The notes beneath the pieces were generated by a model. The model saw only the letters and a program-made list of their open reading frames with translations. It was not told the origin of the DNA and searched no databases. This document shows positions 13,899 to 49,200 of a stretch of 51,963 nucleotides of DNA, in pieces (position 1 is the first letter of the stretch; each line of letters starts with the position of its first letter). The stretch is from an uncultured Clostridia bacterium (GTDB lineage: Bacteria > Acidobacteriota > Blastocatellia > Chloracidobacteriales > JADJPF01), in contig CAZHXL010000010.1 of assembly GCA_964536575.1 (NCBI GenBank), positions 1-51,963 on the forward strand, written 5' to 3'. A program made the translations under genes and the position numbers.

Positions 13899-13928
13899 AA
13901 AAGTAGTCACAACGTTGTGACTACTTTT
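13899..13928. repeat. Perfect 30-nt palindrome, GTAGTCACAACGTTGTGACTAC family (copy 1)
   Basis: AAAAGTAGTCACAAC|GTTGTGACTACTTTT. An identical sequence recurs at 37125-37154. Here it lies between two co-directional genes, so it could also terminate the upstream one. Confidence 0.85.
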
Positions 13929-27054: not shown

Positions 27055-30000
27055 TTAGTCTTTTCTTACGCCGTAGATCTCTTGTTGAGCCGATACTGGT
27101 TGATTTGCTTTAATGAAATCATCGTCTGTTGAATCAAAAGCCTTAGGCACTCTGTTAGAGTAGTAGTCTTCAGGGTTTATTGTATTTACTTCTTCGCCTA
27201 CAAAAACTGCTGCCTGAGCATTAAAAGTAGCAAGAACTACAGAGTTAGACTCTACGCCATTGGAGATGAGTTTGACTTGATTTGAACCAGTTTTTAGGTT
27301 GAGTTTTTTCTTGCTACCTTTCAAACTAACCAAACTAGTTGATACATTTCTAATAAAGCTAGAAACTTCTTTATTATTAACAAATACTCTGGTGTCTGTA
27401 CCAAAGTTTGCCCCATTGATAGTTAACATGGGTTTAGTATAACCTGCTGATGAAATCGTAGGTTTAGCCGCTTCTACAACTAAAGTAGCAGAAGTTGTAC
27501 GAGTAAGATTACCGCTAATACCTGTAATAGTAACAGCATAAGTGCCTAGAGGAGTGTTACTGTTAGTGACAATTGGCACAGTTGTAGCAGAGCTATTAGC
27601 AGAAGATACATCACTAGTGGCATTTGAAGGTAAACCACTAATGCTTAATAAAACATCACCAGAAAATCCACCAGTACTAGCACGGTTTAGTGTGTAACTA
27701 GCTGTTTCACCAGGGTTTACAGTTAAAGAGCTAGGTGATAATGATAGACTGAAGTCTTGCTGTACGTTTGAGTTAACTACTAATGTAAATACATTTGAAT
27801 CAGCAATGGTAACCCCTGAAGCTTTTCCTGTTACTACAAAATTGTAAATTCCAGCAGGAATACTATTAGTTGTAGTAATATTTAAGCCTACACCACTAGC
27901 AGTAGTGGGATTTTGTGAGTAGCCAAAAGTAAGACCAGGTATTGTTGTACCACTTAGGACTCTTAAACCTAGTTCTACCGCGTCAGTAAAGTTAGTACGA
28001 TTAATAGAAACAGGATAACTTGCTAGTTGTCCTTGAGTTATTGTTGTGGTTACTTGATTTACTTGTAACCCTACTGATTTTGCAATATTAACATTTTGTA
28101 CTGTCAAAATAGCTGATGCTGTTCGAGTTAATCCACCACCAATACCAGTAACAGTAATAGTATAAGTACCTGCTGGCGTATCACTGCTAGTAATAACAGG
28201 TAAAGTTACAGGGAAGCTAAAACTAGTAGGTAGTCCATTAATAGAATTAGAAGGAACGCCGCTAACATTTACCGATACATTACTGGAAAATCCATTGACA
28301 TCGTTACGGCCTAAAGTGAAATTAGCAATTTCACCAGATTTTACGGTTAAAGAGCTAGGTAATATTGAAAGATTAAAATCGGGCTGTGCTACCACTGGTG
28401 ACTTAACTACCAAAGTAAATGCGCTAGAGTCAGGAATGGTAATTCCTGTAGCTCTTCCTGTTAATACAAAGTTATAAGTTCCGGCTGGAGTAATATTAGT
28501 TGTAGCTATATTCAACCCTATATTATTGGCAGTAGTAGGATTTTGCGAATAACTAACGGTAACACCTGGTATAGTAACACCGCTTAACATTGTTAGGTTC
28601 AATGTTACAGGAGCAGCGAAATTGCTACGGTTAAGACCTACAGAGTAATTTGCTATTTGTCCTTGGTTTATTGTTGCTGTTGGTTGGCTTACCTGTATTC
28701 TAACTGATCTTGGAATAGGATTAATATTTTGCACAACTAGAGTAGCAGAAACTGTGCGAATAAAAGTTCCACGAATACCAGTAATAGTAATAGGATAAGT
28801 GCCTAGTGGCGTGTTACCGCTAGTAATAATTGGTAGTGTTACAGGAAAGTTGCTACTACTAGATAAATTAGCAACAGTATCTGAAGGTAAACCGCTAACA
28901 CTTAATGAAATATTGCCAGAGGAGTCTCCACCAATATTAGTGCGGTCTAGTATGAAATTAGCAGTTGCACCAGGTCTTACAGTTAAAGAACCAGGTGATA
29001 GTGATAGGCTAAAGTCTTGTTGCGAAAGTGAACTGACTACTAATGTAAGTACATTAGAGTCAGCAATAGTAATCCCTGGAGCTTTGCCTGTTACTACGAA
29101 ACTATAGCTCTTTATTGGAGTACTTTTAGTTGTAGTAATATTTAGGGTTACACCATTGGCAGTAGTAGGATTTTGTGAGTAACTAAAGGTAAGACCTGGT
29201 ATTGTTTCTCCTCCTACTACTGTCAATCCTAGCTCTATAGAGGGAGTAAAGTTAGTACGATTAATAGAAACAAAGTAACTTGCTGTTTGACCTTGGCCTA
29301 TTGTTGTAGTTGCTTGGCTTACTTGTAAACCTACTGATTTTGTAACATTAACATTTTGTACTGTTAATGTAGTAGAAGCTGTGCGAGTAAGGTTTCCACT
29401 AACACCAGTAACAGTAATAGTATAAGTCCCTGCTGGAGTATTACTGCTAGTGATAATAGGTAGGGTTACAGGAAATTTAATCTTAAGAGGTAGGCCATTG
29501 GTAGCATTAGCAGGAAGCCCACTTACGCTTAATGAGATATTACCTAAAGTTTTATTAGTAGAGTCCAAAGTAAAATTAGCTGTCTCACCAGGTTTTACAG
29601 ACAAGGGATTTGGCGATAATGATAAGGCGAAATCTTGTTGAACGGAACTAACCGCTAAAGTAAGCGGAGTAGAGTCACTAATAGTAATTCCCGAAGCTTT
29701 GCCTGTTATTACAAAATTATAAGTTCCTAATGGAGTTTGCTCTCTAGTAATAATATCTAGTGTGACAATATTGTCAGTAGTAAAGTTTGTAGAGTAGGCA
29801 AAAGTAATACCTGGGGTAGGATTATCATTTAATTCAGTCAACCCTAATTCCACAGGATTAGTAAAATTACTACGATCAATAGATACAGAATAACGGGCTG
29901 TTTGTCCTTTACCAATGGAAGTAGAAGGCGCAGATACTTGGAGCGTAACAGAACTAGATTGGTCAGACACCACAGGATAAATAGAGTTTACTTCCGAAAC

Positions 30001-30159
30001 ATTATTTAAGATGAAAGCAGGACTGTGGTTAGTATTAGCGTTAGCATCTGTAGTGACTGTTGCCACTAGAGCTAGTATAATAGCTAGTATAAATGTAAAG
30101 ATTTGGGTTTTTCTATATAAATAAAAATTCTTAAGTGCTAGGAAATTTTTTTCCTGCAT
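27055..30159 (-). CDS. Repetitive Ig-like-domain cell-surface protein
   Basis: Signal/anchor sequence. Four ~205-aa tandem units, each with two beta-sandwich-like halves (VGLQVSQ.TTTI.QGQ.ASY.VSINRTNF... and QQDFSLSLSP.SLTV.PGETANFTL...TPAGTYTITVTG). A C-terminal IPT-like module follows. Confidence 0.8.
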   Translation of the reverse strand: MQEKNFLALKNFYLYRKTQIFTFILAIILALVATVTTDANANTNHSPAFILNNVSEVNSIYPVVSDQSSSVTLQVSAPSTSIGKGQTARYSVSIDRSNFTNPVELGLTELNDNPTPGITFAYSTNFTTDNIVTLDIITREQTPLGTYNFVITGKASGITISDSTPLTLAVSSVQQDFALSLSPNPLSVKPGETANFTLDSTNKTLGNISLSVSGLPANATNGLPLKIKFPVTLPIITSSNTPAGTYTITVTGVSGNLTRTASTTLTVQNVNVTKSVGLQVSQATTTIGQGQTASYFVSINRTNFTPSIELGLTVVGGETIPGLTFSYSQNPTTANGVTLNITTTKSTPIKSYSFVVTGKAPGITIADSNVLTLVVSSLSQQDFSLSLSPGSLTVRPGATANFILDRTNIGGDSSGNISLSVSGLPSDTVANLSSSSNFPVTLPIITSGNTPLGTYPITITGIRGTFIRTVSATLVVQNINPIPRSVRIQVSQPTATINQGQIANYSVGLNRSNFAAPVTLNLTMLSGVTIPGVTVSYSQNPTTANNIGLNIATTNITPAGTYNFVLTGRATGITIPDSSAFTLVVKSPVVAQPDFNLSILPSSLTVKSGEIANFTLGRNDVNGFSSNVSVNVSGVPSNSINGLPTSFSFPVTLPVITSSDTPAGTYTITVTGIGGGLTRTASAILTVQNVNIAKSVGLQVNQVTTTITQGQLASYPVSINRTNFTDAVELGLRVLSGTTIPGLTFGYSQNPTTASGVGLNITTTNSIPAGIYNFVVTGKASGVTIADSNVFTLVVNSNVQQDFSLSLSPSSLTVNPGETASYTLNRASTGGFSGDVLLSISGLPSNATSDVSSANSSATTVPIVTNSNTPLGTYAVTITGISGNLTRTTSATLVVEAAKPTISSAGYTKPMLTINGANFGTDTRVFVNNKEVSSFIRNVSTSLVSLKGSKKKLNLKTGSNQVKLISNGVESNSVVLATFNAQAAVFVGEEVNTINPEDYYSNRVPKAFDSTDDDFIKANQPVSAQQEIYGVRKD
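27460..29950. repeat. Four tandem ~620-bp coding repeats
   Basis: There is DNA-level similarity between units. For example, ACCAGTAACAGTAATAGTATAAGT(A/C)CCTGCTGG recurs at about 28145 and 29405. Confidence 0.75.
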
Positions 30160-30445: not shown

Positions 30446-30772
30446 CTAAGTAGCAATAGCGAGTTTAAGTTTGATTTGTATTTGCTGCCAATCTCTATCA
30501 GAAAGATGGCCAATAAGAGTAGTGTTAGAAATAAGAAAGGTGGAAAGATAAGGTCTAAAAGCAGTAGGAGAATGAAGACCAGCCAAATTCCAATCTTGCA
30601 AAACATGATCAGTAGAACAAGTAGCCAAAGAAAGGTTAGTAGTCAAAACAGCTAAAACAACATCAATGCGTTCTTTGTGATAAAGCTCAGTGGAAACAAC
30701 AACGGTAGGTCTACGTTTAGTTGAAGCAGCACCTAGAAAATCTACAGTAATAATATCACCTGGTTTGAGCAT
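30446..30772 (-). CDS. mazF: PemK/MazF-family toxin (full length)
   Basis: 108 aa. The N-terminus MLKPGDIITVDFLGAASTKRRPTVVVS fits the family, and a small antitoxin ORF precedes it. Confidence 0.75.
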   Translation of the reverse strand: MLKPGDIITVDFLGAASTKRRPTVVVSTELYHKERIDVVLAVLTTNLSLATCSTDHVLQDWNLAGLHSPTAFRPYLSTFLISNTTLIGHLSDRDWQQIQIKLKLAIAT

Positions 30773-30798
30773 TGTAAAAGCAAAACCTCCATTAAAAA

Positions 30799-30999
30799 TT
30801 ATTCCTGGTCATCAAAATAATTAAGAGAAGCATTAGAGAAATCTGCCAAATCTTCATCAGTCCATTCAGTACTATAATCTATGTTAGATTGATATTTAGT
30901 TTTAAGGAACAAAGCAAAATCTTTTACCTCATCAACCTTATCTTTAGGAAGAGTTCTTAGTAAGGTTAGAATTTCAGTTTCTTGGGTAGTAGTAAGCAT
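30799..30999 (-). CDS. Antitoxin (DUF2281-like)
   Basis: 66 aa from ATG 30999 (AAGGA upstream; the ORF track extends to 31062). The LLRTLPKDKVDEVKDFALFLK motif and acidic C-terminus are typical of antitoxins paired with PemK/PIN toxins. Confidence 0.6.
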   Translation of the reverse strand: MLTTTQETEILTLLRTLPKDKVDEVKDFALFLKTKYQSNIDYSTEWTDEDLADFSNASLNYFDDQE

Positions 31000-31309
31000 A
31001 GTTATATCCTTGGGGTAGTGCACAAAATGTAATGCTGAGAATTTGAAAAATATATACCACAATAGCTTAATAAACCAATAGTTTCCATCACTTTTTATTT
31101 GCTTTGTGGCATTACATTTTTAGCACTATCAGTAATGGTCAATTCACTTTTATGGGGCAAGATTAGCAACTCTAAGATATTTATTACAAATCAGGCCAAC
31201 AATTTGTGTGATGGAACTTTTAAATTTTTAGTAGCGTTTTTTCTGTAGAAATCCTATATTACCAATTATATACACAAACTTTCCTAATCATATTTTTCTA
31301 GGAGGCTTA

Positions 31310-33286: not shown

Positions 33287-33838
33287 ATGTCTAAAAAACT
33301 CTTAATTAAAAATGTAAAAAAGATGAAAAATCTTCTGCCTATTCTATTTGCTTGTTTCATGTTTTTGTTAAGCCCACAACTAACTAACGCACAAACAAAC
33401 ATAGTGCAAAATAGTGGATTTGAACAAGGACAAGCTTTTTGGGTGTTCTCACCTACATCTACGGTATCTTATGGTGATGGATGTTTTGGAGCACAACGTG
33501 CTAATGCTGAACTAGTTCCCAATAGTAGTAATATTACACCTGAAATCTCTCAAAATATCACAATACCAAGTTCAGGGATAAGCCAACTTGCACTTTCCAT
33601 TAAATCTGATGTTTTTTCGTCTAGTGGACAAGTTATAGTTGAATTTAAAGCAGGGTCAGTTTTAATCGCAAGCGTGACTTTTGGTACTGCTGGTCAGTTT
33701 GGTTGTACGGAAAGATTTGCCACCCTCCCCGCGGCAAACTTTGATTCTTATCGTAATCAAAATGTTACATTAAATATTCGTACAGCTAACACAAGTGGAT
33801 CACCTGTATACCATATTGATAGAGTTCGAGTGTTTTAG
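33287..33838 (+). CDS. Secreted hypothetical protein (CBM/galactose-binding-like by eye)
   Basis: Signal peptide. The mature N-terminus NIVQNSGFEQGQAFW resembles the start of CBM4_9-type jelly rolls. This is weak. Confidence 0.5.
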   Translation: MSKKLLIKNVKKMKNLLPILFACFMFLLSPQLTNAQTNIVQNSGFEQGQAFWVFSPTSTVSYGDGCFGAQRANAELVPNSSNITPEISQNITIPSSGISQLALSIKSDVFSSSGQVIVEFKAGSVLIASVTFGTAGQFGCTERFATLPAANFDSYRNQNVTLNIRTANTSGSPVYHIDRVRVF

Positions 33839-33852
33839 CGTTAATTATTGCT

Positions 33853-33891
33853 TAGATATAAGTCTTCGGTTTTACTGAGGTCTTATATCTA
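33853..33891. terminator. Hairpin between convergent genes
   Basis: 12-bp stem TAGATATAAGTC / GTCTTATATCTA (1 mismatch) with a 15-nt loop, lying between the stop codons at 33838 and 34005. Confidence 0.4.
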
Positions 33892-34004
33892 GCACTAATA
33901 ATTTTATTCCCAAAAGAATAATGGTATTAAATTTGGGAAACAGAACTTTAAACCATATTTAAAACTACCTAAAACCACAGGGTTCTTGAGGAAGAATTGT
34001 AATA

Positions 34005-35702
34005 TTAATCAACCGTAACCCCATAACTATTTAGTAATGCTATTAGCCCAGCGGCAAAGCCCTGTCCAATGGCCTTAAATTTCCATTCACCTTTATATAA
34101 ATAAACCTCTCCTAAAATCAGTACTGTTTCGCTGCCTCGGTTTGTATAAAGATAATTTGTTAATTCTTTTCCATCTTGAGGGTTTATCACTCTTAACCAA
34201 ACAAAAGGCACAGCTTGGAAGGTTTGTCGGCGGGTTTCAGCTTCGTAAATCATTACAGAAAAAACTAATTTGGTAATGTTAGAAGGTATTTTAGTAAAAT
34301 TTAGAGAAAGTATTTCATTATCAAGTAAAGAGCCATCGCCACCTAAATGCTTAACTGCTCCACAAGAAGAAATAGGCGTATTGTAATAAATAAAGTCTTC
34401 ATCACTGCGTACATTTCCATTTGGAGTAGTTAAAATTACACTACCATTTAGCTCTAGGTTTGGACTAGTGCTTTCCCAACCTAAATGGACTTCTAATTTT
34501 TTTAACTCAGTAACAAGTTTAGATAAAGAAACATTAGCTCCGGCTGATAATGTGTTTTGATTAGGTAAACTGGTATTTGCTCGTTTAATAGAATTAGTTG
34601 TAGGGTTAGTTGTTTGATTACTTGTTTGTTGAGATGTGGGGCTATCAAACCAAATGTTGGTTTTAGGTTCAGTCGTTGAGTTAGCTACTTTATTTTCCTC
34701 TGTAAACCAAATGTCTTTTTTTTCAGGGGTAGAAGGTTTAGTGGGTTGATTATCAAACCAAACATCTTTTTTTTGAGCAGGAGCAGGGGGGGGAGTTTCT
34801 GCAAACCATGGGTCTTGTTTGGGTTTTGGTGGATCAAAGCGGTTTCTTATCTCTTTCATTTGTTGTTCGGCTACGGCTTTGTTTTCTAATCGGCTTAGCT
34901 CGTCTATTACTGGAGTAGGATGGTTTATAGGTGAGGAAGCAATAACAGGAGGATTATTAGGAGACGGCCTAGGATAACCTTGTAGTTCGGCTTGGGCTTC
35001 AGCTAATGCTTCGGCTTGCATTAAGTTTTTTTCTATCCGCTCTAGCTCGCTTTCCATATTGCCAGATTTTCCATGGACAGCATTATTCATTTTTTCTTGA
35101 ATTTGTAGCGAACGTTGACGGCTAATTAATAAATCTCGGTTGCGTTTAGCTTCTGCACGTTTATTAACTAAGGCTTGTAATTGTTCTTTAACCTGATTTG
35201 AGACACTTTGTTGTGAATCTATTTGGTTTTGGTATTCTGTAACCATTTGTTCATATTCTTGTTTACGAACTAGTGCATCTCTAGCTATATCATCACGCCC
35301 TGTTAAAATGGCTCTTTCAGCCCGATCTTTCCATTCTTTAACCCGTTCTAGTGTTGATGCTTTTTCTTGATAAAGTTTGTTTTCAATACTAGTAAATTCA
35401 GCTACATAAACACGAGCTTCTTCGATAGCTTGATCAATTTCTTTGATCATTTTATCAAAGATTTTTTCAGTTTCTGCTATTTGCTCATTAGAGGGAAGTT
35501 GTGGCGTTTGTGGTTTATTAGCAGGTTGACTAGTTGAACCACCCATTCCAAAAGCTCTACTAGCTCGATCACGCGCCTGGTCTATAGTGCGGTCAATACC
35601 ACCAAGAACTGAGCTAAAATTTCTTTCAAGGTCTCTTGTTTGTTCACGGGTATTACCCGTTTTTGCTTTCAAAATATTTGAAATTCTATCAAATATTCCC
35701 AT
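34005..35702 (-). CDS. PspA/IM30-domain protein fused to a C-terminal TerD domain
   Basis: ATG 35702 is preceded by AGGAGG (the track starts at 35723).
- N-terminus: MGIFDRISNILKAK plus a coiled-coil region (VKEWKDRAERAILTGRDDIARDALVRKQEY...) match PspA.
- Linker: Pro-rich, with four (D/N)xWF motifs.
- C-terminal ~170 aa: LEVHLGWES...DEDFIYYN...KLVFSVMIYEA...GEWKFKAIGQGFAAGLIALLNSYGV is a TerD domain. Confidence 0.85.
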   Translation of the reverse strand: MGIFDRISNILKAKTGNTREQTRDLERNFSSVLGGIDRTIDQARDRASRAFGMGGSTSQPANKPQTPQLPSNEQIAETEKIFDKMIKEIDQAIEEARVYVAEFTSIENKLYQEKASTLERVKEWKDRAERAILTGRDDIARDALVRKQEYEQMVTEYQNQIDSQQSVSNQVKEQLQALVNKRAEAKRNRDLLISRQRSLQIQEKMNNAVHGKSGNMESELERIEKNLMQAEALAEAQAELQGYPRPSPNNPPVIASSPINHPTPVIDELSRLENKAVAEQQMKEIRNRFDPPKPKQDPWFAETPPPAPAQKKDVWFDNQPTKPSTPEKKDIWFTEENKVANSTTEPKTNIWFDSPTSQQTSNQTTNPTTNSIKRANTSLPNQNTLSAGANVSLSKLVTELKKLEVHLGWESTSPNLELNGSVILTTPNGNVRSDEDFIYYNTPISSCGAVKHLGGDGSLLDNEILSLNFTKIPSNITKLVFSVMIYEAETRRQTFQAVPFVWLRVINPQDGKELTNYLYTNRGSETVLILGEVYLYKGEWKFKAIGQGFAAGLIALLNSYGVTVD

Positions 35703-35759
35703 ATTTCCTCCTAGCAACACCAAACAAAAGACCTTGAAGCGAAACTTAAATATAAACCT

Positions 35760-36341
35760 CTATAGTAATGATTGTATTACAGGAAGTAGGTCTCTAAAAG
35801 TAGTTCCATTCGTACCTTCTCCTATTGCGTGCATTTTCCATTCACCATCGTGGCGATAGAGTTTTACCATTACTTGAGCAGTGTTGTTTGCACCACCACT
35901 AAGATTATATCTAGCAACCTCTTCACCATTGGCTTGATTAACTATTCTACAAAAAGCATTGTTAATTGACGCAAAAGTTTGACCTGAGAAACTGCTAATA
36001 GTAAATACTAGATATTTTACATTTGCTGGTACAGTAGATAAATTAACAAATATTTGTTCATCATCGCCTGCACCAGACCCATCGCGGTTATCTCCGCTAT
36101 GTTTGATGCTACCATCTAGGCTATTAAGTTGACGAAACCAAATAGAGTCAATCATATGCTTGCTTTCATCAAACATAATACAAGAAGCGTCTAGGTCTAT
36201 ATCTTCATTACTAGAAAGAAAAGACATCCAACCGCTTTTCTTTTTCTGATCCCAACCTAGTCCCATTACTACTTTAGATAGTTTCTGACCAGAATCTTTT
36301 TCTAAAGATATTTTTTGTCCTTTTGATAAATTTATTGGCAT
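35760..36341 (-). CDS. TerD-family protein (TerZ/TerD-like)
   Basis: MPINLSKGQKISL...GLGWD...HSGDNRDGSGAGDDEQIFVNL...GEWKMHAIGEG, with GGAGG upstream. Confidence 0.9.
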   Translation of the reverse strand: MPINLSKGQKISLEKDSGQKLSKVVMGLGWDQKKKSGWMSFLSSNEDIDLDASCIMFDESKHMIDSIWFRQLNSLDGSIKHSGDNRDGSGAGDDEQIFVNLSTVPANVKYLVFTISSFSGQTFASINNAFCRIVNQANGEEVARYNLSGGANNTAQVMVKLYRHDGEWKMHAIGEGTNGTTFRDLLPVIQSLL

Positions 36342-36380
36342 ATTACCTCCTAGTTAACCCAATGCCTTAGCCTTGGGGTT

Positions 36381-36956
36381 TTAGACATTTACACCAAAAC
36401 TACGAATTAATTCAGGGAAACCACCTCGAAAACCTTGCCCTACAGCCTTAAATTTCCATTCAGTATTATGACGATAAACTTCACCAATAATCATAGAAGT
36501 TTCTAGACTAGCATCTTCTGAAAGATCAAACCGGGAAATTTCACTACGAGTAGCATTATTAAGCACCCGCATATAGGCTGAGGCTATCATGCCAAAATTT
36601 TGTTTTCGAGAATCTGCTTCATAAATTGAAACAGCAAAAACAAGTCTAGTGATTTCTTGAGGGACATTTACTAGATCTATTCTAATTACCTCATCATCCC
36701 CTTCGCCAACACCAGTGGTATTATCTCCTAAATGTTCAACAGAGCCATCTTGAGATTTACGATTGTTATAAAAAATAAAATCATAATCTGAACGAACTTT
36801 ACCACTAGCGGTAACTAGAAAAATACTAGCATCAAGGTCAAATGCAGAGCCGTCAGTCATACGAGCGTCCCAGCCTAAGCCTACTATGATTTTTTCTAGT
36901 CCTGGTTCTGTTTTAGTTAGAGAAATGTTACCACCTTTTTGCAAAGAAATACCCAT
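36381..36956 (-). CDS. terD: TerD stress/tellurium-resistance family protein
   Basis: [13 protein letters not shown]...GLGWDAR...DYDFIFYNN...[21 protein letters not shown]...[12 protein letters not shown] is canonical TerD, including the Ca-binding GDN.TG.G.GDDE motif. Confidence 0.92.
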
Positions 36957-37124
36957 AATATACTACCTCCTTAAAAGTCAACATTTTACAAAATGTTAAT
37001 AGTTATTTCTAATTTTGATTTGTACAAGGTATTGTACTTAGTGGCAAGTTGTCTTGGACGAAATCAGGAGAAGAACGACAGAGCAATATGTTTTATTGGA
37101 AAGTTAAAAGCTAAAGGATAATCT

Positions 37125-37154
37125 AAAAGTAGTCACAACGTTGTGACTACTTTT
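37125..37154. repeat. Perfect 30-nt palindrome, GTAGTCACAACGTTGTGACTAC family (copy 2)
   Basis: Identical to 13899-13928. Here it lies in a divergent promoter region, so a terminator role is unlikely. Confidence 0.85.
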
Positions 37155-37196
37155 AATCACAACAATCTCGCTTTGTTTAAAATATCATTATCCAAA

Positions 37197-37228
37197 TGTA
37201 GGGGTGAACCTATGTGTTCGCCCCTACA
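37197..37228. repeat. Palindromic repeat, GGGGCGAAC family
   Basis: TGTAGGGGTGAAC-CTATGT-GTTCGCCCCTACA is related to 1203-1223. Confidence 0.7.
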
Positions 37229-37301
37229 TTTCATTGCAAAAAAACGACAGTTGATGGATAAATAGTTGTTGCTACTTCTAGGAAAGGGCAAACTAAATTC
37301 T

Positions 37302-39227
37302 ATGACTGCAAAATCTATTGCTACATTAGTTAATTTACTTGGCTTTGTTACTGGCGCGGCACTTTACGCCATGCTACTAGCAATGGTGCTAAGACAACCT
37401 GAGCAAAAAGGGGTAAAAAATAAAACGCTACTAGTTTTACCAAATAATAAGCTCCTTTTGCTTACAGCCCTGTTAGGTTTTTTTTGGAATATTGGTGCAG
37501 TCACAATTTATGGAATCCCTGATTTAGGCGTAGAAAATACTTTTCCTTCTTTAGTAGCAGCATCATTTACAACCTTAGGTTTTTTACCTTCTGTAGTTGT
37601 CCATCTAATTTTACGTAGCGAACAGATATTAAAAAAGCAAAACTTTTGGATTGCTATAATTGCTTATCTGCTAAGTGGAGTTGCTGGACTACTACATTTT
37701 TATGTTGCAGTTATAGGTGATCCTCTTCCTTCTCACATTGCTTTGCATCTTTTAACTATTGGGTTTGCTCTACTAACCGTTGCTTTGCTATTTTCTACTA
37801 GAGGGCAATTAGGCTGGCAAAGGGCTTTTTGGGTAGTAGGTTTAGCTGTATTTGCTGTTTCAGCCCTGCATTTAAGCCATCATGACGCAGAAAGCTATCC
37901 TTGGTGGATTGAAATGTCTGGCCACCATGCTTCTTTGCCTTTGGTTGTAGCAATTCTTTATCAAGATTATCGCTTTGCTTTTGCAGATATTTTTCTAAAA
38001 CGCACTATTTCTTTAGTGCTGCTAGTTATCACAGTTTTTGGTGCTTATATTAGTGTTGCACCGCTTTTGGCAATTCGTGATGTTAACAATGAAGCTGACC
38101 CTTTAGCTGTAGGTTTATTACTAGGATTATGGGTTACTACTACGTTATTTTATCCAAAATTACGCCAATTGGTGGTTTGGTTTGTTGATACAATTATCTT
38201 AAAACGCGTTGATTATGACAATTTACGTACAGAAATCGCTCGTAAGATTGCTCAATTTGAAACTCCTGAAGAGATACTTTCAGAGGTTTGTAAAATGCTG
38301 ACACCAGCCCTAACCGCTAAACAAGTTAATTGGTTTATGGAAGAAAATTCTCTTTCTGGCCATCATACTTTAACTATGTTGTTTCCTACTACAGAAATGC
38401 CTAATTATTATTTAACAGTGGGCGAACTTAAAGCAGGGCGTAGGCTTTTGTCTGATGATTTAGAAATGTTAGAAGCAGTTGTTTTAATGGTTGCCCGTCG
38501 TATTGATGTAGTAAGAGTTACACATGATCGATGTAAAATCAGTTTACGTGAACAAGAAATTAGTAAACTTGTTACTGAAGCTGAATTAACAGCACTTAGA
38601 GCACAACTAAACCCACATTTTCTCTTTAATGCATTAACAACATTAGGTTATTTGATTCAAACTGCTCCTGATAAAGCGTTTGAAACTTTGATGCGCTTAA
38701 CAGGGTTATTAAGAGGAGTACTTCGACGTTCAGCAGGAGAATTTGCTAGCATTGGCGAAGAAATAGAGTTAGTCAAAGCGTATTTGGATATTGAAAAAAC
38801 ACGATTTGAAGAACGCTTGCAAGTAAAAATAATTAGTCCTAAAGAATTAGAAAATATTCGTATTCCTTCTTTACTTATTCAACCTTTGGTTGAAAATGCA
38901 ATTAAACATGGAATAACACCTGCTAAAACAGGTGGAGAGGTTTTTATTAAAGTGGAAAAGAGCATTTTTAATAACCTAGAACAGGTAAAAATTACTGTAC
39001 AAGATACAGGAATGGGTGTTAGTGAATTTGACCTAGCGCGAGGACGAAAAAAAGGTGTAGGGTTAGCTAATATTGAGCGTCGCTTAAAATGCCATTACAG
39101 CGACGAAGTAGTAATGAAAATAAAAAGTGAAGTTGGTTTAGGCACAAGCATAGAAGTAGCTTTGCCTTTTGGTGCTAATGTTTTAACTCCTGAATTAAAA
39201 GCTAGTAGAGGTTCTAGTAGAGGTTAA
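37302..39227 (+). CDS. LytS/YehU-type sensor histidine kinase
   Basis: Multi-TM N-terminal domain. His_kinase (PF06580-type) motif LRAQLNPHFLFNALTTL. HATPase N-box QPLVENAIKHG and G1 box DTGMGV. ATG 37302 is preferred over TTG 37266. Confidence 0.9.
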   Translation: MTAKSIATLVNLLGFVTGAALYAMLLAMVLRQPEQKGVKNKTLLVLPNNKLLLLTALLGFFWNIGAVTIYGIPDLGVENTFPSLVAASFTTLGFLPSVVVHLILRSEQILKKQNFWIAIIAYLLSGVAGLLHFYVAVIGDPLPSHIALHLLTIGFALLTVALLFSTRGQLGWQRAFWVVGLAVFAVSALHLSHHDAESYPWWIEMSGHHASLPLVVAILYQDYRFAFADIFLKRTISLVLLVITVFGAYISVAPLLAIRDVNNEADPLAVGLLLGLWVTTTLFYPKLRQLVVWFVDTIILKRVDYDNLRTEIARKIAQFETPEEILSEVCKMLTPALTAKQVNWFMEENSLSGHHTLTMLFPTTEMPNYYLTVGELKAGRRLLSDDLEMLEAVVLMVARRIDVVRVTHDRCKISLREQEISKLVTEAELTALRAQLNPHFLFNALTTLGYLIQTAPDKAFETLMRLTGLLRGVLRRSAGEFASIGEEIELVKAYLDIEKTRFEERLQVKIISPKELENIRIPSLLIQPLVENAIKHGITPAKTGGEVFIKVEKSIFNNLEQVKITVQDTGMGVSEFDLARGRKKGVGLANIERRLKCHYSDEVVMKIKSEVGLGTSIEVALPFGANVLTPELKASRGSSRG

Positions 39228-39234
39228 ATAATAA

Positions 39235-40020
39235 ATGATGAGTACAAAACTGCGTGTAGTTATTGCTGAAGATGAACGTCCTGCAAGACTTTTTTTAATT
39301 GCAATGTTAAACGCTTTTGAGGACGTAAAAATTGTTGGCGAAGCTTCTAATGGTACAGATGCTGTGACAATTATTGAGCAAGAACAACCAGACTTGGCCT
39401 TTCTTGACCTACAAATGCCAGGGTTAGATGGTTTATCAGTAGTAAGAGCACTGAAAAAAAATCAAATGCCTTTAATTGCTTTTGTTACTGCTTATGATGA
39501 ATATGCTGTACAAGCTTTTGAGTTAAATGCTGTAGACTATTTGCTTAAGCCCGTAGAACGCTCACGCCTGCGTGAAACCATCAACCGTGCTCAGGAGCGT
39601 TTAGATAGAGCAGACCTACGTGCAGAAGAAAATCGCAACTTAGAAGAAGCAGTTAAAGATTATGAAACTGCTACACAACTACCAAAAATTGACCGTATTC
39701 CTGTTAGACAAAAAGACGAAATTATTATAGTCCCAGTAAGTCAAATAGCTTCTATTATTGCCGATGGAGAGCTTTTACATATTACTAATAGTCGTAATGA
39801 AAACTACGTGATTAACCATCGTCTTAAAGATTTAGAGTTAAGACTTGAACCAGATAAATTTGTTCGTTTAGGGCGTGGGTCGCTAGTAAATATTGATATG
39901 ATTACCCGTATTCATCAAATGCCTGGTGGTACTTATATGGTGACGCTTAGTAATAATCAGCAGATTAAAGTTAGTCGCTTGCAATCAAGATTTTTAAGAG
40001 AACGACTCTTAAGGCTTTAA
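39235..40020 (+). CDS. LytTR-family response regulator
   Basis: Receiver domain (RVVIAEDERPAR...PDLAFLDLQMPGLDG) plus a LytTR DNA-binding domain (IPVRQKDEIIIVPV...FVRLGRGSLVNIDMI). Confidence 0.9.
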   Translation: MMSTKLRVVIAEDERPARLFLIAMLNAFEDVKIVGEASNGTDAVTIIEQEQPDLAFLDLQMPGLDGLSVVRALKKNQMPLIAFVTAYDEYAVQAFELNAVDYLLKPVERSRLRETINRAQERLDRADLRAEENRNLEEAVKDYETATQLPKIDRIPVRQKDEIIIVPVSQIASIIADGELLHITNSRNENYVINHRLKDLELRLEPDKFVRLGRGSLVNIDMITRIHQMPGGTYMVTLSNNQQIKVSRLQSRFLRERLLRL

Positions 40021-43069: not shown

Positions 43070-43222
43070 ATATAGCTATAAAATAAACATGTTTGTTAGC
43101 TAGGAAATCTTTTTCTATAAAGGTTTGATAGTGCTTTGGGTTTTACTTATGATGTGAGACTTATAGGTTTCTCAACTACTGAACTATATCGACATTTTAT
43201 TTTTGTCTGTTTAGGAGCCATA

Positions 43223-46200
43223 ATGTCTCGGATAAATTTGCGCAACTTGTTTTCTAGAGAAAACCTGCGTAAAAAATTGCTGATTTTTGCTGCATTACTA
43301 ATAGCATTTATTGCTTTATTAGTTGGCTCGCTAGCACTATATATAAGAAGTGAAAGGTTTAATCAGTTTGTTATTTCTCAAATTAAAGCCACTGCTCCTT
43401 TATATGGATTACGTGTTGAGGTAGGAGGTTTTGGGTTTAGTCTGAAGGCAAGTCAAGCAGAACTCAAAAACCTTAAAGTCTTTAATAAAAAAACAGACCA
43501 GTTACTACTTGAAGTCGAGCGAGCAGAGCTAAACGCCAAAGTTGTTGACCTTTACGCGCTTAAATTACAACGTCAGGTGATACTGGAAACCTTAAACCTG
43601 AAAGGACTAAAACTTTTTTTAGAATTTAAGCCTAATGGTACTAATAATCTTACAGGCATAGGATCACTTAATAATACTCCTAGCAGCCCTGGTGCTATTG
43701 AAGTAGATAGCTCACACCTAAATATAGCAATTACTGATAGTAGTATATCCTTAAAGGATAGTGTAAACCGTGTTGACCTTAACCTAAACAATGTTGGGAT
43801 TGAAGCTAAATTAAAAAGTGCTACCCAAGCAGCAATAAAAGTAAAAGGTGATGGTGAGATTTCTTATCAAGATTACAATACTAAGATTAAATCTATTGCA
43901 ATCAATGGGTTAATTAGTGACCAAGGCTTAGAGCTTTCTCCAAGCCTACTTGTGACTACTTTAGGAAAAATTGAGCTTAATGGTCAACTTAAGGATTGGA
44001 AAAAGTTAGAGCATCAACTAGAGTTTCAGGCTGAAACAGAGTCTTTAGAAATTGCCGACCTGAAAATAAAAGGTCAAAGCAATTTTCAAGGTAAGGTTGT
44101 TGGTGATAAAAACTCATCTCGCTTAACTGGAAGTCTAAATATCGCTGACCTAACAGCTAGTAAGACTCATCTTATTGGCTTAGAAGTGGCTAACCTAGAA
44201 CTTGCTACAGGAGCAAGGCTTGATTTAGCTACTGAGGAAATTAAAGTTCAATCTGTTAATGTCAATTCAATAACTGCTAAAAATATAAAGATCCCTAGCT
44301 TAAAAGGTAGCCTTTCAAACAGCCTTGAGGTTGTTGTACCAAAGTTGTCCACTGTCTCAATAGTTGTTCCTAATAGTCAAATAAATGGTATCCAATTAAG
44401 TGATATTAACTTAAAACTCTTAGACAAAGGTTTGGATGCAACAGTTAAACAGGCTTTAGTTGCTAGTGTCACAACTGCTAATGGTAAAGTAAATTCTATA
44501 AAATTTAGCCAAGTGGCAGTAGAAACAAAAGGTTCTAACTATAAAGTAGAAACAGATTTATTTTTATCAACGGCAATATTTAATAATATTCAAGCTGAAC
44601 AAGTTAACAGTAAACTACTTTTAGAAAACAACATTCTTACATTATCAAAACTAAAAACAAACCTATTTGGAGGACAAGCCGACCTAGAAACACAGATTGC
44701 TTTATCTGGTAATACAACGTCTCGTTTACAGGCTAAATTCGGGCAAATTAATAGTGCAGAACTAGGTAAAATACTGCAAAAAGAACCTTTACCAATTACA
44801 GGACTAATTGGAGGTAGTGCAGAGCTAACTTGGCCTGGGATAGATATTCTTAGAGCAAGTGGACAGTTAAAAGCTACTGTTCAAGGAGAAACAGCAGCAA
44901 ATACTGACAAATTACCGCTTACTGCCGAGCTACTTGTGCAAGCCCAAGATGGTAAATTAAACATTAACCCATTAAAGGCTAAATTAGGAGAAACAGACAT
45001 ATCTCTACAGGCAACAATTTTTCCTAAAACTAAAATGATTGCGGCTGAGTACCAAGTTAACTCTAATAATTCTGAGCAGTTACTTTTACTAGCCAAAAAT
45101 TTGAAACTGCTTGACGAGCAAATTCTAGACTATAAACCTGAGTTATCAGGAAATTTAAAAGCCGTAGGACAAGTAAATGGCACATTTGATAAACTGTCTA
45201 TTACTACTGAGTTTGAAACCAGTAGCGTAGGTTTTCAAGATAATAAATTTTCAAGCTTAATTGGTAAACTACAATTAACACCTGAAGATATCCAAGTTGA
45301 TGTTAATAAACTCTTAGATACTCAAGGTGGGATGCTTAGCTTTAATTATCAAGGAAAGATTAGTGATCCTGTTAATACAGGAAGGTTAAAAGCAGACTTT
45401 CAAGATTTTCACCTCCAACTATATCAACAGCCTGAAAACAAAGAGATTTTTGTTGGTGCAATTAATGGCAAAGCAGAATTTACTAGACTAAGTGAAAATG
45501 GTGAAGGCAAAGCACAACTTACCTTAAATAACAGTAGGGTTGCGAGCCAAAAAATAGACTTGGCAGAGGTTGAAATAGGGCTAGCCAATCAACTACTTGA
45601 GCTTAATATTATTTCTTTACAAGTAGCTGCGGCTAAAATTGATGGTAAAGGCGCGCTAAGCTTAAAGACGAAAGACTTTAACTTTCAAGGACAAGTTAAA
45701 GACCTAGACCTAGCCAAAATAACTACAGATGCTTCTTTGGCAGGGATAGTAAACGCGAGTCTTCAAGTAAATGGTAATGTTAATGACTTAAATGGTTTAC
45801 AACTATCTTTACAGGCAGAATCTAAAGACCTGCGTACCCCTACAACCAAGCTTGGGCAGCTTTCTTTGTCTGCTAAGACTGATAATCAAGGGCGTATTCA
45901 AGCTGAAATAGTTTCTTATCTAATTCCTACACAACCACAAAAAATTTTTGCTACAGTGTCTCCTAACAAGGATGGCTACCCTTTAGAAATAGAAAGCCAA
46001 TTATCAGAATTAGATATTGCTTTATTACTAGCAGTTCTTAAAGTTGACACTAAAGGAGCTATTAGTAGTAAATTATCTGCAAAAATATTTGTTAAAGGTA
46101 ATATTCTCAACAGTAAAGATGAGTTTAGCTTAGATAATTTCCAAGGCAACATGCTGCTTACGTCTGCTAGTCTAAAACTTTCTGAGCAACCGCTTAATAT

Positions 46201-49200
46201 TGAAACCCCCTGTAATATTACATTTGACCAAGGTAAATTATGTGTAGAGCGAATGCGTGTTTTTAATGATAGCTCAGATATAACTCTTAGTGGGCAATTA
46301 GGTTTAAGTGGAAATAACCCTTTAGAATTTATTACAAATGGGACAGTTAATCTTGCACAATTTGCTAGTTTAATCCCTGATAGCTCACTTGCTGGGTTAG
46401 TTAAGGTAGACAGTAAATTAACTGGAACAGTCAATAAGCCTAATCTTTCTGGAAGCTTACTAGTTAGCAACCTAGCTTTTGCACGTCCAGATTTACCTGT
46501 AGAGTTTAGAAATGGAAATGGTTTAATTAGGTTAAATAACGATAAGGTTTTATTAGATAATTTTGTTATAAGAGCAAATGATGGGCAAGTTACTGGAGTT
46601 GGACAAGTTGACTTAAAAGGCTTTGAAATTGCTAACTTAAAGCTAAAACTCTCAGCTACAGATATAAACTTAATCTATCAAGCTGTTGCTATGACTCTTA
46701 AAGGAGATGTGACATTAGAGGGAAATCAAAACTTCCAAGTACTTAAAGGTAATATAAAGGTTTTAGAGGCAATATATTCAAAGCCTTTTGATACTAGTTT
46801 ACTGGGTAGCAGTACTAGTATTATTGATTATTCAAAGAGTCTTTTTTCACCAAGGCTAGACATTAATATTGATGCTGATAGCTCTATAATTGTACGTAAT
46901 CCACAAATTGATACAGTTGCTTCAGCCTCAATAAGTTTAGGCGGACAAATCGACAATCCCAATTTAACCGGGCGTATTTCTTTAGAAGGTGGGACAGTTA
47001 CTCTACGTAAGCAGCGTTATGATATTACACAAGGGATTTTAGATTTACCAGGAGGGATTTTACTTCCTACCATAGATTTATTAGCAGAAGGAAACGTTAG
47101 TACTTACCGAGTTTTTATCCGTTTTACTGGGCCAGTAGACCAAATTGACCTAGAGTTAGAGTCTGAACCAACTTTAACACGTACAGAAATACTAGCTCTA
47201 ATTACTACAGGACGTACTGAAATAGGTGGAGGAGACAATCAAGATCTAACGACTACAGGGCTTAGCACAGGGGCTAATTTATTAGCACAAGAATTTATTT
47301 CTAAACCATTTGGCCGCAAAGCAGAACAGTTTTTAGGTTTAAGCCAATTTCAATTTGATCCAATAATACGCCCAAATGAAAACCCTTCAGCCCGTTTAAC
47401 CTTAGGACGACAGATTATTCCTAAACTTTCTTTTACTTATTCAACTAGTCTTAGTAGCAGCAAAGATCAAGCTATTGTGCTGGAGTATAATTTGTCAAAT
47501 CGCTTTTCTTCACTGTTTTCTTTTACTCAAGGTGGAGGTACATCTACTAAAGGTAATACTAGTGATAGTGACTATGCTTTTGAAATACGTGGGCGAGAGC
47601 GTTTTGCATTAGGTGGAAAAGGTAATCTAGAAAAAAGTACTATGCTCTCTACAATGAGTAGCTTTAAGCCTTTGACCTTGCCTACAGCAGAAGTAATTGT
47701 GGACAAACCAGAAGAAATAAAAATTGATAATGACACTTTACGCGACTTATTGCCAATTAAGCGACAAGCCTTTAGTAGCCCGCTTGCACGGCTTGGACAA
47801 GAAAACTTAACTAATTATTTACAAGAAAAAGGATATTTTTTTGCTAAGGTTTCAACTAGTTGTGAGCCTTTTGATTGCCAAGGAACAAACCTAAAAGTCC
47901 GTTATCAGGTCACTTCTGGCACTCGTTATGAAGTGAGACAAATAACTATTACAGGAACAAACCTATTTTCTCCTGCTAGTGTTATTAGCCAACTACAATC
48001 AAAAGAGAAAAACTTTGTTGGTAACTTTCCTATTTTGCGTAGCTTACCGTTTATTGGTGGTTTGGCTGATGGAATAACTAGCAATGAACGACTTCGCCAA
48101 GATAGCGACCTAATAAGGCAACAATTAGTTGATTTAGGTTATCGTCAAGCCACTGTTTCCTATAGCTATGATATTGATTCTGATGGACTTGGGCTAAAGA
48201 TAGGCTTTAATGTCACAGAAGGTGCGATTAGTCGAATAGGAGAAATAGACTTACATGGGGTAAGTCTATTAAACAAAGAAGAATTAAGGCAAGAGATTTC
48301 TATTAGCTTGGGTGATCCTTTTTTTCCCTCTCGTCCTCGTGAAGTAGCACAAAAACTAGTAGATTATTACGCCCAACAAGGTTATTTAGACACTAAAATT
48401 GATCTAGAAATAGAACAAATGTCTAATAACAATGTTCGCTTAATTTATCAAATAAACGAAGGATCAATTGCAACTGTTGGTGATGTGGTATTTATTGGAA
48501 CAGTTGGAGTTAATGAAAAAGCACTGCGACGATTTATTGAACTAAAACCAGGACATATAATTACTAATAGGAAACTCCAGAGGCTACAAAAAGGCCTTTA
48601 TGCTACTGGAAATTTTCGAGAAATTCAAATCCTTACCATTCCTGGAATAGGAAAAAATCCAACAGATAGACAAGTATTAATCAAACTAACCGAAGCTAAA
48701 CCATTGCTATTAGTTTATGGTTTTGGTTTTTCTAGCGATGATGGGCCGAGAGGCTCTCTAGAGTTAAGTAATACAGATTTTTTAAACAGAATTAATAGTG
48801 CCTCTTTACGTTTACGTTTGGGTAAACGCGAACAGACACTACAACTACAACTTACTGACCCACGCCCTTTTGGTAGTAGATGGTCAACAACTTTTTCAGC
48901 CCTCTACAGCCGAGTTACAGAATTAGCGGGCACTAGCGAGCAAATTAGTAATGTTGATCAAATCGGGCTAGATAATACTAATATTGGTTTATCTCGTTTC
49001 TCGTCATTTATACAAACAGAGCGTCGTCTAACCAACCATGTTTCAGTAAGATTTCGTTATAACTTTGAGTTAAACAAGTTGCTAAATTTAGAGGATGCTC
49101 AGTTTAGTGCTTTTGCTGAAACTTCGCGAATTACTCGGATTGCTACATTATCTGTAGGCTCGTCTTATGATAGTCGTAACAACCCAATTAACCCAACTAG

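Follow-up and report, generated by a model that had tools for sequence, protein, structure and literature searches.

A conserved cluster of two TerD-family genes and a PspA-TerD fusion with a repeated W-F-acidic linker, a candidate membrane-stress module

On the minus strand of contig CAZHXL010000010.1, which was analysed over 51,963 nucleotides (positions 1 to 51,963, henceforth the window), three consecutive genes encode a canonical TerD protein (gene 1), a TerZ-type TerD paralogue (gene 2), and a protein of 565 amino acids (gene 3) in which a PspA/IM30 domain is joined to a further TerD domain by a disordered linker bearing repeated tryptophan-phenylalanine-acidic (WF) motifs. This triad is conserved in at least ten independent loci, and the WF array is exclusive to the PspA-TerD family among the proteins compared, making up its most diagnostic feature. 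The triad is tentatively read as an operon-like membrane-stress module in which Ca2+-sensing TerD and TerZ proteins would be recruited to, or would regulate, a PspA polymer, a reading to which a probability of roughly 45% is given.

The three genes (coordinates in Table 1) are co-directional with spacers of 39 and 57 nt, and a ribosome-binding site, AGGAGG, stands ahead of each of the three ATG codons. The start listed for gene 3 was a TTG at 35723; the ATG at 35702 (MGIFDR...) was preferred because of its ribosome-binding site and because every homologue opens with MGIFDR or MGLWKR. All three products passed the cut-off of the Pfam family TerD (PF02342, 25.3 bits; individual scores in Table 1). 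Gene 1 was collinear over its full length with the TerD structures 3IBZ and 2KXT (E ~1e-75). Gene 2 was classified as TerZ-type by its best match on enterobacterial ter plasmids, which is annotated terZ (47–48% identity over 95% of the query). Immediately ahead of its intact DLDAS lies an insertion of basic and aromatic residues, KKKSGWMSFLSS, which reads KKAKGFFGGLKGGG in other lineages.

For gene 3, a profile search with per-domain boundaries placed both PspA_IM30 (PF04012; 84.8 bits against a gathering cut-off of 33.9, profile positions 19–188 of 220) and TerD above their cut-offs, in the N-terminal and C-terminal parts, respectively. A sequence search of the PDB aligned residues 76–244 with Vipp1/PspA structures (E ~1e-15 to 5e-8), and residues 384–563 with the TerD proteins of Klebsiella pneumoniae (2KXT, E 1.7e-37) and Streptomyces (3IBZ). 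AlphaFold2 (AF2) was run twice on gene 3, using alignments of 13 and 22 sequences. Predicted helices comprised residues 3–12 (alpha0), 18–50, 72–133, 137–210, 216–240, and 266–289, the last of these being probably alpha5 of PspA as judged from the model, and the fused TerD was modelled as a beta-sandwich (residues 390–560) with a predicted local distance difference test score (pLDDT) of 80–92 in the 22-sequence run. With the 13-sequence model as query, Foldseek retrieved TerD and PspA/Vipp1 structures separately: the PspA half matched 4WHE (TMt, i.e., the TM-score normalised to the target, 0.81), 7O3W, and 6ZVR, and the fused TerD matched 3IBZ and 2KXT (TMt ~0.69). The coiled-coil signature of the family was also found (EWKDRAERAILTGRDDIARDALVRK). 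Scores against the NCBIfam equivalog models TIGR02977, NF007974, and NF045984 (52.6, 38.8, and 30.4) stayed far below the respective cut-offs of 242.95, 336, and 380; gene 3 belongs to the PspA/IM30 family at the Pfam level but falls outside the equivalogs of E. coli PspA and B. subtilis LiaH. By analogy with that family, its product may bind membranes and assemble into rings, rods, or carpets.

These results bear out the structural content of a preliminary description that had been made from the letters of the DNA, namely three co-directional genes with short spacers encoding a TerD, a TerD/TerZ-like protein, and a 565-residue protein, the last of these with a PspA/IM30 N-terminal half (amphipathic start and coiled-coil signature) and a full TerD domain at the C-terminus. 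Two of its points had to be amended. The insertion that it placed between the N-terminal helix and the first coiled-coil helix is real (~53 amino acids), yet it is not purely of low complexity: about half of it is conserved and predicted to be helical (residues 18–50), followed by a Pro/Gln-rich stretch, the whole at low pLDDT. This insertion is lineage-specific, being restricted to P0001–P0006 (67–100% identical to the window protein) and missing from all other relatives. Likewise, the linker that had been described as Pro-rich is indeed a linker, and a disordered one (residues ~290–385, AF2 pLDDT ~30–37), but it is not merely Pro-rich, since it holds four W-F-acidic repeats that the description had passed over.

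In the window protein these repeats are DPWFAE at residue 299, KDVWFDN at 315, KDIWFTEE at 332, and NIWFDS at 351, and all tryptophan and phenylalanine residues of the linker fall inside them. The motif was present in all TerD-linked PspA proteins examined (25/25), in which 105 copies were counted, i.e., 3–7 per protein at a spacing of 13–35 residues, with the consensus [KP][KPR][DE][LIVP]-W-F-[DPN]-[ED]-[ESP]-P over the 25 family members. From composition, ~0.055 WF per 100 amino acids would be expected. Not even a single WF was detected in the ~110 nearest ordinary PspA proteins, and of 141 further representatives with a TerD domain, a set that includes kinase-TerD, NERD-TerD, and TerD-SUFU fusions, not one had two WF. 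The position of the motifs in a region that AF2 predicts to be disordered fits the usual setting of short linear binding motifs.

The TerD domains of the triad differ in their calcium ligands. According to the account in PMC8779313 (citing Pan 2011), K. pneumoniae TerD binds two Ca2+ ions, one through residues 40, 41, 42, 78, 79, and 89 and the other through residues 29, 82, 84, and 88. When aligned to this protein, the fused TerD was found to carry D40->E and D42->N (DLD becoming ELN), a deletion of D78 and N79, and D88->N. Genes 1 and 2, on the other hand, keep FDLDAS/IDLDAS and GDNxTGxGxGDDE in all nine triad loci aligned, and the ligand set is degraded in every fused TerD examined, by differing changes. 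The degenerate loop of the fusion and the intact loops of the stand-alone proteins had already been noted in the preliminary description; the alignment confirms both and adds the loss of DLD. Judged by these residues, genes 1 and 2 appear to be Ca2+-competent and the fused TerD appears to be blind to Ca2+ ("Ca-blind"). In an alignment of the TerD sequences the three positions formed three orthologous groups across loci, and the fused TerD was nearest to gene 1, sharing 40% identity with that group as against 26% with the group of gene 2. Identity across loci was highest for gene 1 (69–97%), followed by gene 2 (58–95%) and the fused TerD (28–84%), which indicates stronger constraint on genes 1 and 2 than on the fused domain.

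The order TerD (191–192 amino acids), TerZ-like protein (192–195 amino acids), PspA fusion was found in every related locus with enough upstream DNA, namely L001–L003 (fusion P0008), L004 and L005 (P0006), L087 (P0003), L088 (P0012), L089 (P0005), L090 (P0017), L091 and L092 (P0018), L094 (P0022), and L096 (P0172; here the middle gene is fragmented, on a contig with other fragmented genes). The GC content of the triad loci is either 33–36% or ~54%, their flanking genes are unrelated, and the fusion proteins in the fusion-protein alignment go down to 29–39% identity to the window protein. That the gene order is kept across divergent lineages with unrelated flanks strongly supports one functional module. 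One further locus, L095 (GC content 48%), carries a split variant. At 825–1856 it encodes a PspA of 343 amino acids (P0083) with six WF motifs followed by a true stop codon; a complete TerZ-like gene and the 3' terminal part of a TerD gene lie upstream, a convergent membrane protein gene lies downstream, and no TerD remnant was detected by tblastn downstream of P0083. Since this locus has the WF tail and free TerD proteins and lacks the fused TerD, the invariant core consists of two free TerD proteins and a WF-tailed PspA, and the fused Ca-blind TerD is a usual but dispensable part.

The search for this architecture and its neighbours, which the preliminary description had proposed, was run on several collections. 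A profile search of a library of 1.84 billion proteins at 50% identity returned seven fusion representatives (P0001, P0008, P0017, P0018, P0019, P0022, and P0034), one fragment, and the L095 form; a word-indexed search of 5.8 billion clusters at 90% identity added P0002–P0013, P0171–P0175, and P0179, giving a total of ~24 clusters. On a profile of PspA plus WF tail the fusions scored at least 275 bits and the best ordinary PspA 163 bits, and this gap marks the PspA-WF-TerD proteins as a discrete clade. The architecture is therefore rare. The source labels of the low-GC group read "Blastocatellia bacterium", from which an origin of the window in Blastocatellia (Acidobacteriota) is likewise probable; for the ~54% GC loci the only labels, those of P0175, conflict (Akkermansiaceae versus Armatimonadota). 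The fusion is not conveyed by the names that automatic pipelines had assigned, which read "TerD family protein", "tellurium resistance protein TerD", and "phage shock protein A". Among the matches listed, none of 80 generic TerD loci (mostly from Streptomyces and Proteobacteria, with up to 8 kb of flank per side) had a PspA-like open reading frame (ORF), which argues for a specific PspA-TerD link as opposed to a trait of ter loci at large, and the fusion itself was likewise absent from all 80 (genome-contig scan with the full-length alignment; pattern EWKF[KR]A[IL]G). A scan of metagenome contigs with the PspA plus WF alignment gave only ordinary PspA proteins at 25–39% identity. Viral contigs held no relative of the fusion and a single weak PspA-like match, and in phage records the matches covered no more than the TerD third of gene 3 and none of its PspA half.

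In comparison with PspA, IM30 (Vipp1), and LiaH, the bacterial members of the ESCRT-III superfamily, gene 3 is alike in alpha0, in the hairpin with its signature, in alpha4, and in alpha5, whereas the WF tail and the TerD domain, and in its subclade the 53-residue insertion, are additions to what PspA and LiaH possess. Unlike in psp and lia systems, the scanned adjacent ORFs contained no PspB/C/F-, LiaI/F-, or Toastrack-type Pfam domain. With the plasmid and chromosomal ter operons (terZABCDEF; IncHI2, E. coli O157, Klebsiella) the triad shares co-operonic TerD paralogues, the TerZ and TerD/E types, and Ca2+ motifs, but TerA, TerB, TerC, TerF/TerY (vWA), and TelA are missing from it, and a putative PspA polymeriser stands in place of any membrane component. 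More broadly, the scanned window ORFs of at least 100 amino acids yielded no TerA, TerB, TerC, TelA, vWA, or PspF domain, in agreement with the earlier statement that terA, terB, terC, terE, pspBC, and pspF are lacking; proteins of PspB size (~74 amino acids) were not searched window-wide, and the intergenic stretches on either side of the operon, of 166 and 309 nt, could hardly accommodate such a gene. The immediate flanks of the related loci likewise showed no TerB, TerC, TerA, TelA, or vWA domain. The locus does not qualify as a ter operon of the classical kind; plasmid studies report TerB, TerC, and TelA to be essential for tellurite resistance.

Among plasmid homologues of gene 2 the best, at 60% identity, lies on the Polaromonas plasmid pPNAP04 (L097, 5214–13837), directly upstream of a cluster of ATP-grasp, phosphoribosyltransferase, HAD, StiP, and HpcH/HpaI aldolase genes, with further TerD genes and DUF475 adjoining. 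This is a "biosynthetic" Ter neighbourhood of a kind that the window lacks, and the triad differs from it in having no adjoining ATP-grasp/phosphoribosyltransferase/HAD genes. Ter systems have been described to pair TerD proteins with TelA, a helical protein proposed to form a sub-membrane structure, and to build complexes proposed to be linked to the membrane (PMC7824862). TelA-TerD clusters (B. subtilis yceCDEFGH type; L120) resemble the triad in having several TerD paralogues beside a long alpha-helical protein, but their helical partner is TelA instead of PspA, is not fused to TerD, and has no WF repeats. Clusters of the yce type usually include TerC. In L120 (11724–14804 of MT836648.1, a human faecal "Bacteriophage sp." scaffold), a TelA-like helical ORF of 384 amino acids (assigned by eye) is followed by three TerD-family genes, the third of which is of TerZ type with a GGGGLFGALFG insertion. 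In Bacteroides "Jug" jumbo phages, terD is co-transcribed with an adjacent pspA-like gene (PMC12880540). Compared by description only, this operon is an independent TerD-PspA linkage, with the difference that the genes are separate and belong to a phage genome. In the literature searched, which did not cover the Ter review by Anantharaman, Iyer, and Aravind (2012) or the architecture tables of InterPro, no link of TerD to ESCRT-III and no TerD fusion to PspA was encountered, and a 2024 survey of PSP (phage shock protein) systems gives PspA fusions with NlpC/P60 and PspAA, does not mention TerD, and has no WF-repeat tail among the fusions it lists. No description of the PspA-TerD fusion with its WF array and triad was found in this literature, and the characterisation of the locus as an undescribed, single module in the preliminary description stands in this respect and, by the gene order, as regards its unity.

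PspA and Vipp1 bind stressed membranes via alpha0 and polymerise as ESCRT-III-like assemblies. In the proposed mechanism, the PspA half of gene 3 would do the same, binding the stressed inner membrane through alpha0 and polymerising like PspA, Vipp1, and ESCRT-III, while the flexible tail with its 3–7 WF-acidic motifs and the Ca-blind TerD would form a docking platform for the free TerD and TerZ proteins. Membrane damage would raise cytoplasmic Ca2+ (or another divalent cation) and load the free TerD proteins, which might then dock onto the WF-acidic motifs, the fused TerD domain, or both, and this binding would switch polymerisation or clustering of PspA at the lesion on or off. In the subclade of the window, a neighbouring LytS/LytTR two-component pair would probably control expression. 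We infer polymerisation, Ca2+ triggering, WF-TerD binding, and LytS/LytTR regulation from the features described above; the mechanism fits because WF motifs and TerD co-occur exclusively, because the loss of Ca2+ ligands is asymmetric, and because the free TerD proteins are under the stronger constraint, none of which proves it.

Several points weigh against this reading. Ca2+ signalling in the bacterial cytoplasm upon membrane damage is poorly established. An equally tenable role for the acidic WF motifs is that of elements which bind chaperones or sit at the membrane interface. Neither AF2 run docked a WF motif on the fused TerD or on the PspA hairpin, a result with no bearing on intermolecular binding. 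The LytS/LytTR pair is absent from most triad lineages and is hence not part of the core. Finally, other ligands of TerD have been proposed in the literature, e.g., cyclic AMP (cAMP) and metals.

Further explanations were weighed. A sharper version of the mechanism, a Ca2+-triggered ESCRT-III (PspA) repair device, would start with Ca2+ entering through the damaged membrane; the loaded TerD and TerZ proteins would attach to the multivalent WF motifs of the tail, with the fused Ca-blind TerD as the built-in nucleus of a TerD hetero-oligomer, and this attachment would switch on polymerisation at the wound. In this detailed form the mechanism is considered unlikely. It would have a counterpart in the eukaryotic ALG-2/ALIX/ESCRT-III repair pathway, in which a Ca2+ sensor, by binding short aromatic motifs of a disordered, Pro-rich region, brings an ESCRT-III polymer to the wound. 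The resemblance is a functional analogy only, as neither the sensors (EF-hand versus TerD beta-sandwich) nor the motifs are homologous, and a bacterial counterpart to this pathway is entirely hypothetical. Alternatively, the triad may serve as a buffer for metals, metalloids, or redox stress, with TerD proteins binding cations or metals, as they would in resistance to tellurite or in the Ca/redox homeostasis of Streptomyces, and the PspA fusion merely tethering their assembly under the membrane. The literature links genes with a TerD domain to redox stress, to the homeostasis of calcium, and to tellurite resistance; GMC oxidoreductase, pirin, ferritin/Dps-like, AhpC, and Usp genes flank the triad in the L001/L088 group, and a thioredoxin-like protein is encoded downstream in the window. 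The redox-type flanks are, however, limited to one subclade, TerB, TerC, and TelA were not found in the scanned window ORFs, and both the WF repeats and the Ca-blind fused TerD would be left unexplained. Buffering is considered just as unlikely.

Less probable than either is an anti-phage module, or an abortive-infection module as the preliminary description had suggested. The TerD proteins would sense infection, in the way put forward to explain the Phi phenotype of plasmid ter operons, and the PspA fusion would seal or deliberately perturb the membrane. Here the abortive-infection part of the earlier claim gained no support: no family of PADLOC-DB 2.0 was matched at E <=0.01 by any of the three proteins, no phage record or viral contig held the fusion, the conserved unit is without a nuclease, protease, NTPase, or other effector, and most of the neighbouring genes have housekeeping, redox, or regulatory functions. 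It could still be argued from the ties of classical ter operons to phage inhibition and the Ter components that phages carry for superinfection exclusion (PMC7824862), from the jumbo-phage terD/pspA-like operon (PMC12880540), from flanks that differ between relatives, and from a MazF/PemK toxin-antitoxin pair 3 kb away in the window and a Cas10/Cmr2 gene ~6 kb away in L006. Least probable among the functional explanations is auto-regulation, according to which the fused TerD and the WF tail would cap their own PspA in the manner of the C-terminal extension of Vipp1, the upstream TerD genes being adjacent for historical reasons and their products not interacting physically with it. C-terminal extensions modulate the oligomerisation of Vipp1, and the closeness of the fused TerD to the gene 1 type (40%) would fit a local duplication. 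Yet the order and all three genes are retained although the fusion proteins are down to 27–39% identical and the GC content ranges over 33–55%, L095 lost the fused TerD and kept both free TerD proteins and the WF tail, and the AF2 models were without intramolecular docking. No point was found in favour of a frameshift or misassembly that fused pspA to terD, which is vanishingly improbable: the ORF is continuous in the ~24 clusters at 90% identity, which derive from NCBI, JGI, ENA, and Logan assemblies, and the linker motifs are conserved. The recurrence of the fusion in independent assemblies excludes a sequencing artefact and refutes the joining of two ORFs by error.

Table 1. Features of the triad and its upstream region in the window (nucleotide positions of the window; residues refer to gene 3)
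Feature	Position	Strand	Evidence or remarks
Gene 1, canonical TerD, 191 aa	36381..36956	-	Pfam TerD 272.5 bits; FDLDAS and GDN loop intact
Gene 2, TerZ-type TerD paralogue, 193 aa	35760..36341	-	Pfam TerD 182.4 bits; DLDAS and GDNRDGSGAGDDE intact
Gene 3, PspA::WF-repeat linker::TerD fusion, 565 aa	34005..35702	-	Pfam, PDB sequence search, AF2, Foldseek
Amphipathic helix alpha0, residues 1-14, MGIFDRISNILKAK	35661..35702	-	near-invariant in 13 close homologues; AF2 helix 3-12
Insertion between alpha0 and alpha1, residues ~25-77	35472..35630	-	alignment; low pLDDT
PspA/IM30 core alpha1-alpha4, residues 73-241	34980..35486	-	PF04012, PDB, Foldseek
Conserved helix, residues 266-289 (DELSRLENKAVAEQQMKEIRNRF), probably alpha5	34836..34907	-	AF2 helix; conserved in alignment
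Disordered linker with four W-F-acidic motifs, residues 290-383	34554..34835	-	motif count; pLDDT ~30-37
Fused TerD domain, TerD/E-type origin, residues 384-560	34023..34553	-	Pfam TerD 163.7 bits; 2KXT match; AF2
Degenerate Ca2+-binding loop, residues 452-464, HLGGDGSLLDNEI	34311..34349	-	alignment to K. pneumoniae TerD
Conserved non-coding block (ATTTCGTCCAAGACAAnTTG...TAnAATA..TGTAnAAATCAA...AAGGAG)	36957..37064	-	may be a promoter, an operator, or a 5' leader
Histidine kinase of LytS type (653 aa) with LytTR response regulator (261 aa), divergent	37266..40020	+	Pfam; candidate regulators

The window is a stretch of ordinary chromosome; besides two toxin-antitoxin pairs and large NHL-repeat proteins, it encodes cytochrome oxidase, HU, SSB, UbiA, Ada, and a TamB/Omp85 protein. 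The kinase upstream of the operon combines a multi-transmembrane N-terminus with His_kinase (PF06580) and HATPase_c domains, and its partner combines Response_reg and LytTR (all by Pfam). The pair lies divergently upstream of the triad in the window, L004, and L089 and is absent from this position in L001, L088, L090, L091, and L094; from its adjacency, a role as lineage-specific regulator of the operon is plausible. The non-coding block of ~100 nt ahead of gene 1 aligns in six Blastocatellia-type loci whose proteins are 58–88% identical, is better conserved than the proteins downstream of it, and holds ATTTCGTCCAAGACAA and a GTACAA....TTGTAC inverted repeat. No riboswitch, leader, or other Rfam family was found in 33500–37600, and scans with sigma-70 and terminator patterns gave counts at or below shuffle expectation and no convincing promoter.

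A perfect palindrome of 26 bp, AAGTAGTCACAACGTTGTGACTACTT, occurs in two identical copies in the window (chance expectation zero), one upstream of the terD operon (37127–37152) and the other (13901–13926) 73 nt downstream of the gene for a 1333-residue NHL-repeat protein. Matches to a degenerate pattern were located in L004 (6557–6582 and 9811–9836), L005 (3243–3268), L087 (6551–6576), and L089 (6444–6469); in L004 and L005 a match lies just past the stop codon of the fusion gene, and the L004 copy has a symmetric GC-for-TA change. Given the identical copy at 13901–13926 and the matches after the fusion stop in L004 and L005, the palindrome was rejected as an operon-specific operator, and it looks like a dispersed element of the REP (repetitive extragenic palindromic) type or a bidirectional terminator. 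The distal copy separates two tandem paralogues on the minus strand (10097–13762 and 13999–18000; 1221 and 1333 amino acids) with Big_2, TIG, NHL/teneurin-NHL, and SBBP beta-propeller repeats.

Other features of the window were recorded in passing. An ORF of 2236 amino acids (43136–49846, plus strand) comprises TamB (residues 1147–1468), three POTRA domains, and a C-terminal Omp85 barrel, such that TamB-like and TamA/BamA-like parts, which are usually separate proteins, are present in one polypeptide. On the minus strand, a protein of 1034 amino acids (27055–30159) has about five long T/S/N/G-rich internal repeats and no significant Pfam match, and a 1034-residue gene is likewise found near the fusion gene on the contig of the closest relative (L006, 3887–6991). 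Also on the minus strand, a TPR-repeat protein of 1174 amino acids with a C-terminal CHAT (caspase-like) domain is encoded at 4565–8089, a RelE-like toxin with an HTH_3 partner at 214–904, and a PemK/MazF-like toxin with a DUF2281-like partner at 30446–31062, 3 kb from the terD operon.

The TerD family is widespread, occurring on plasmids of enteric pathogens, in Streptomyces and Bacillus, and in jumbo phages. For decades its members have been associated with resistance to tellurite, phages, and colicins, but we know of no molecular partner or mechanism for them, and to our knowledge the recruitment and regulation of PspA/Vipp1 is largely unexplained beyond the proteobacterial Psp and firmicute Lia systems. 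Should the fusion be only a lineage-specific decoration of PspA, it would still be a clean addition to the known PspA architectures. The triad suggests where TerD proteins may act, with the hypothesis that they serve, in a Ca2+-dependent manner, as adaptors for a polymer that remodels membranes and have WF-acidic peptides as ligands. If the narrower repair device were true, it would provide the first defined molecular role and the first binding motif for TerD, and would be convergent with ALG-2/ALIX/ESCRT-III. If the adaptor hypothesis holds, two unexplained stress systems would be connected, and the motif would offer a handle for finding TerD clients elsewhere.

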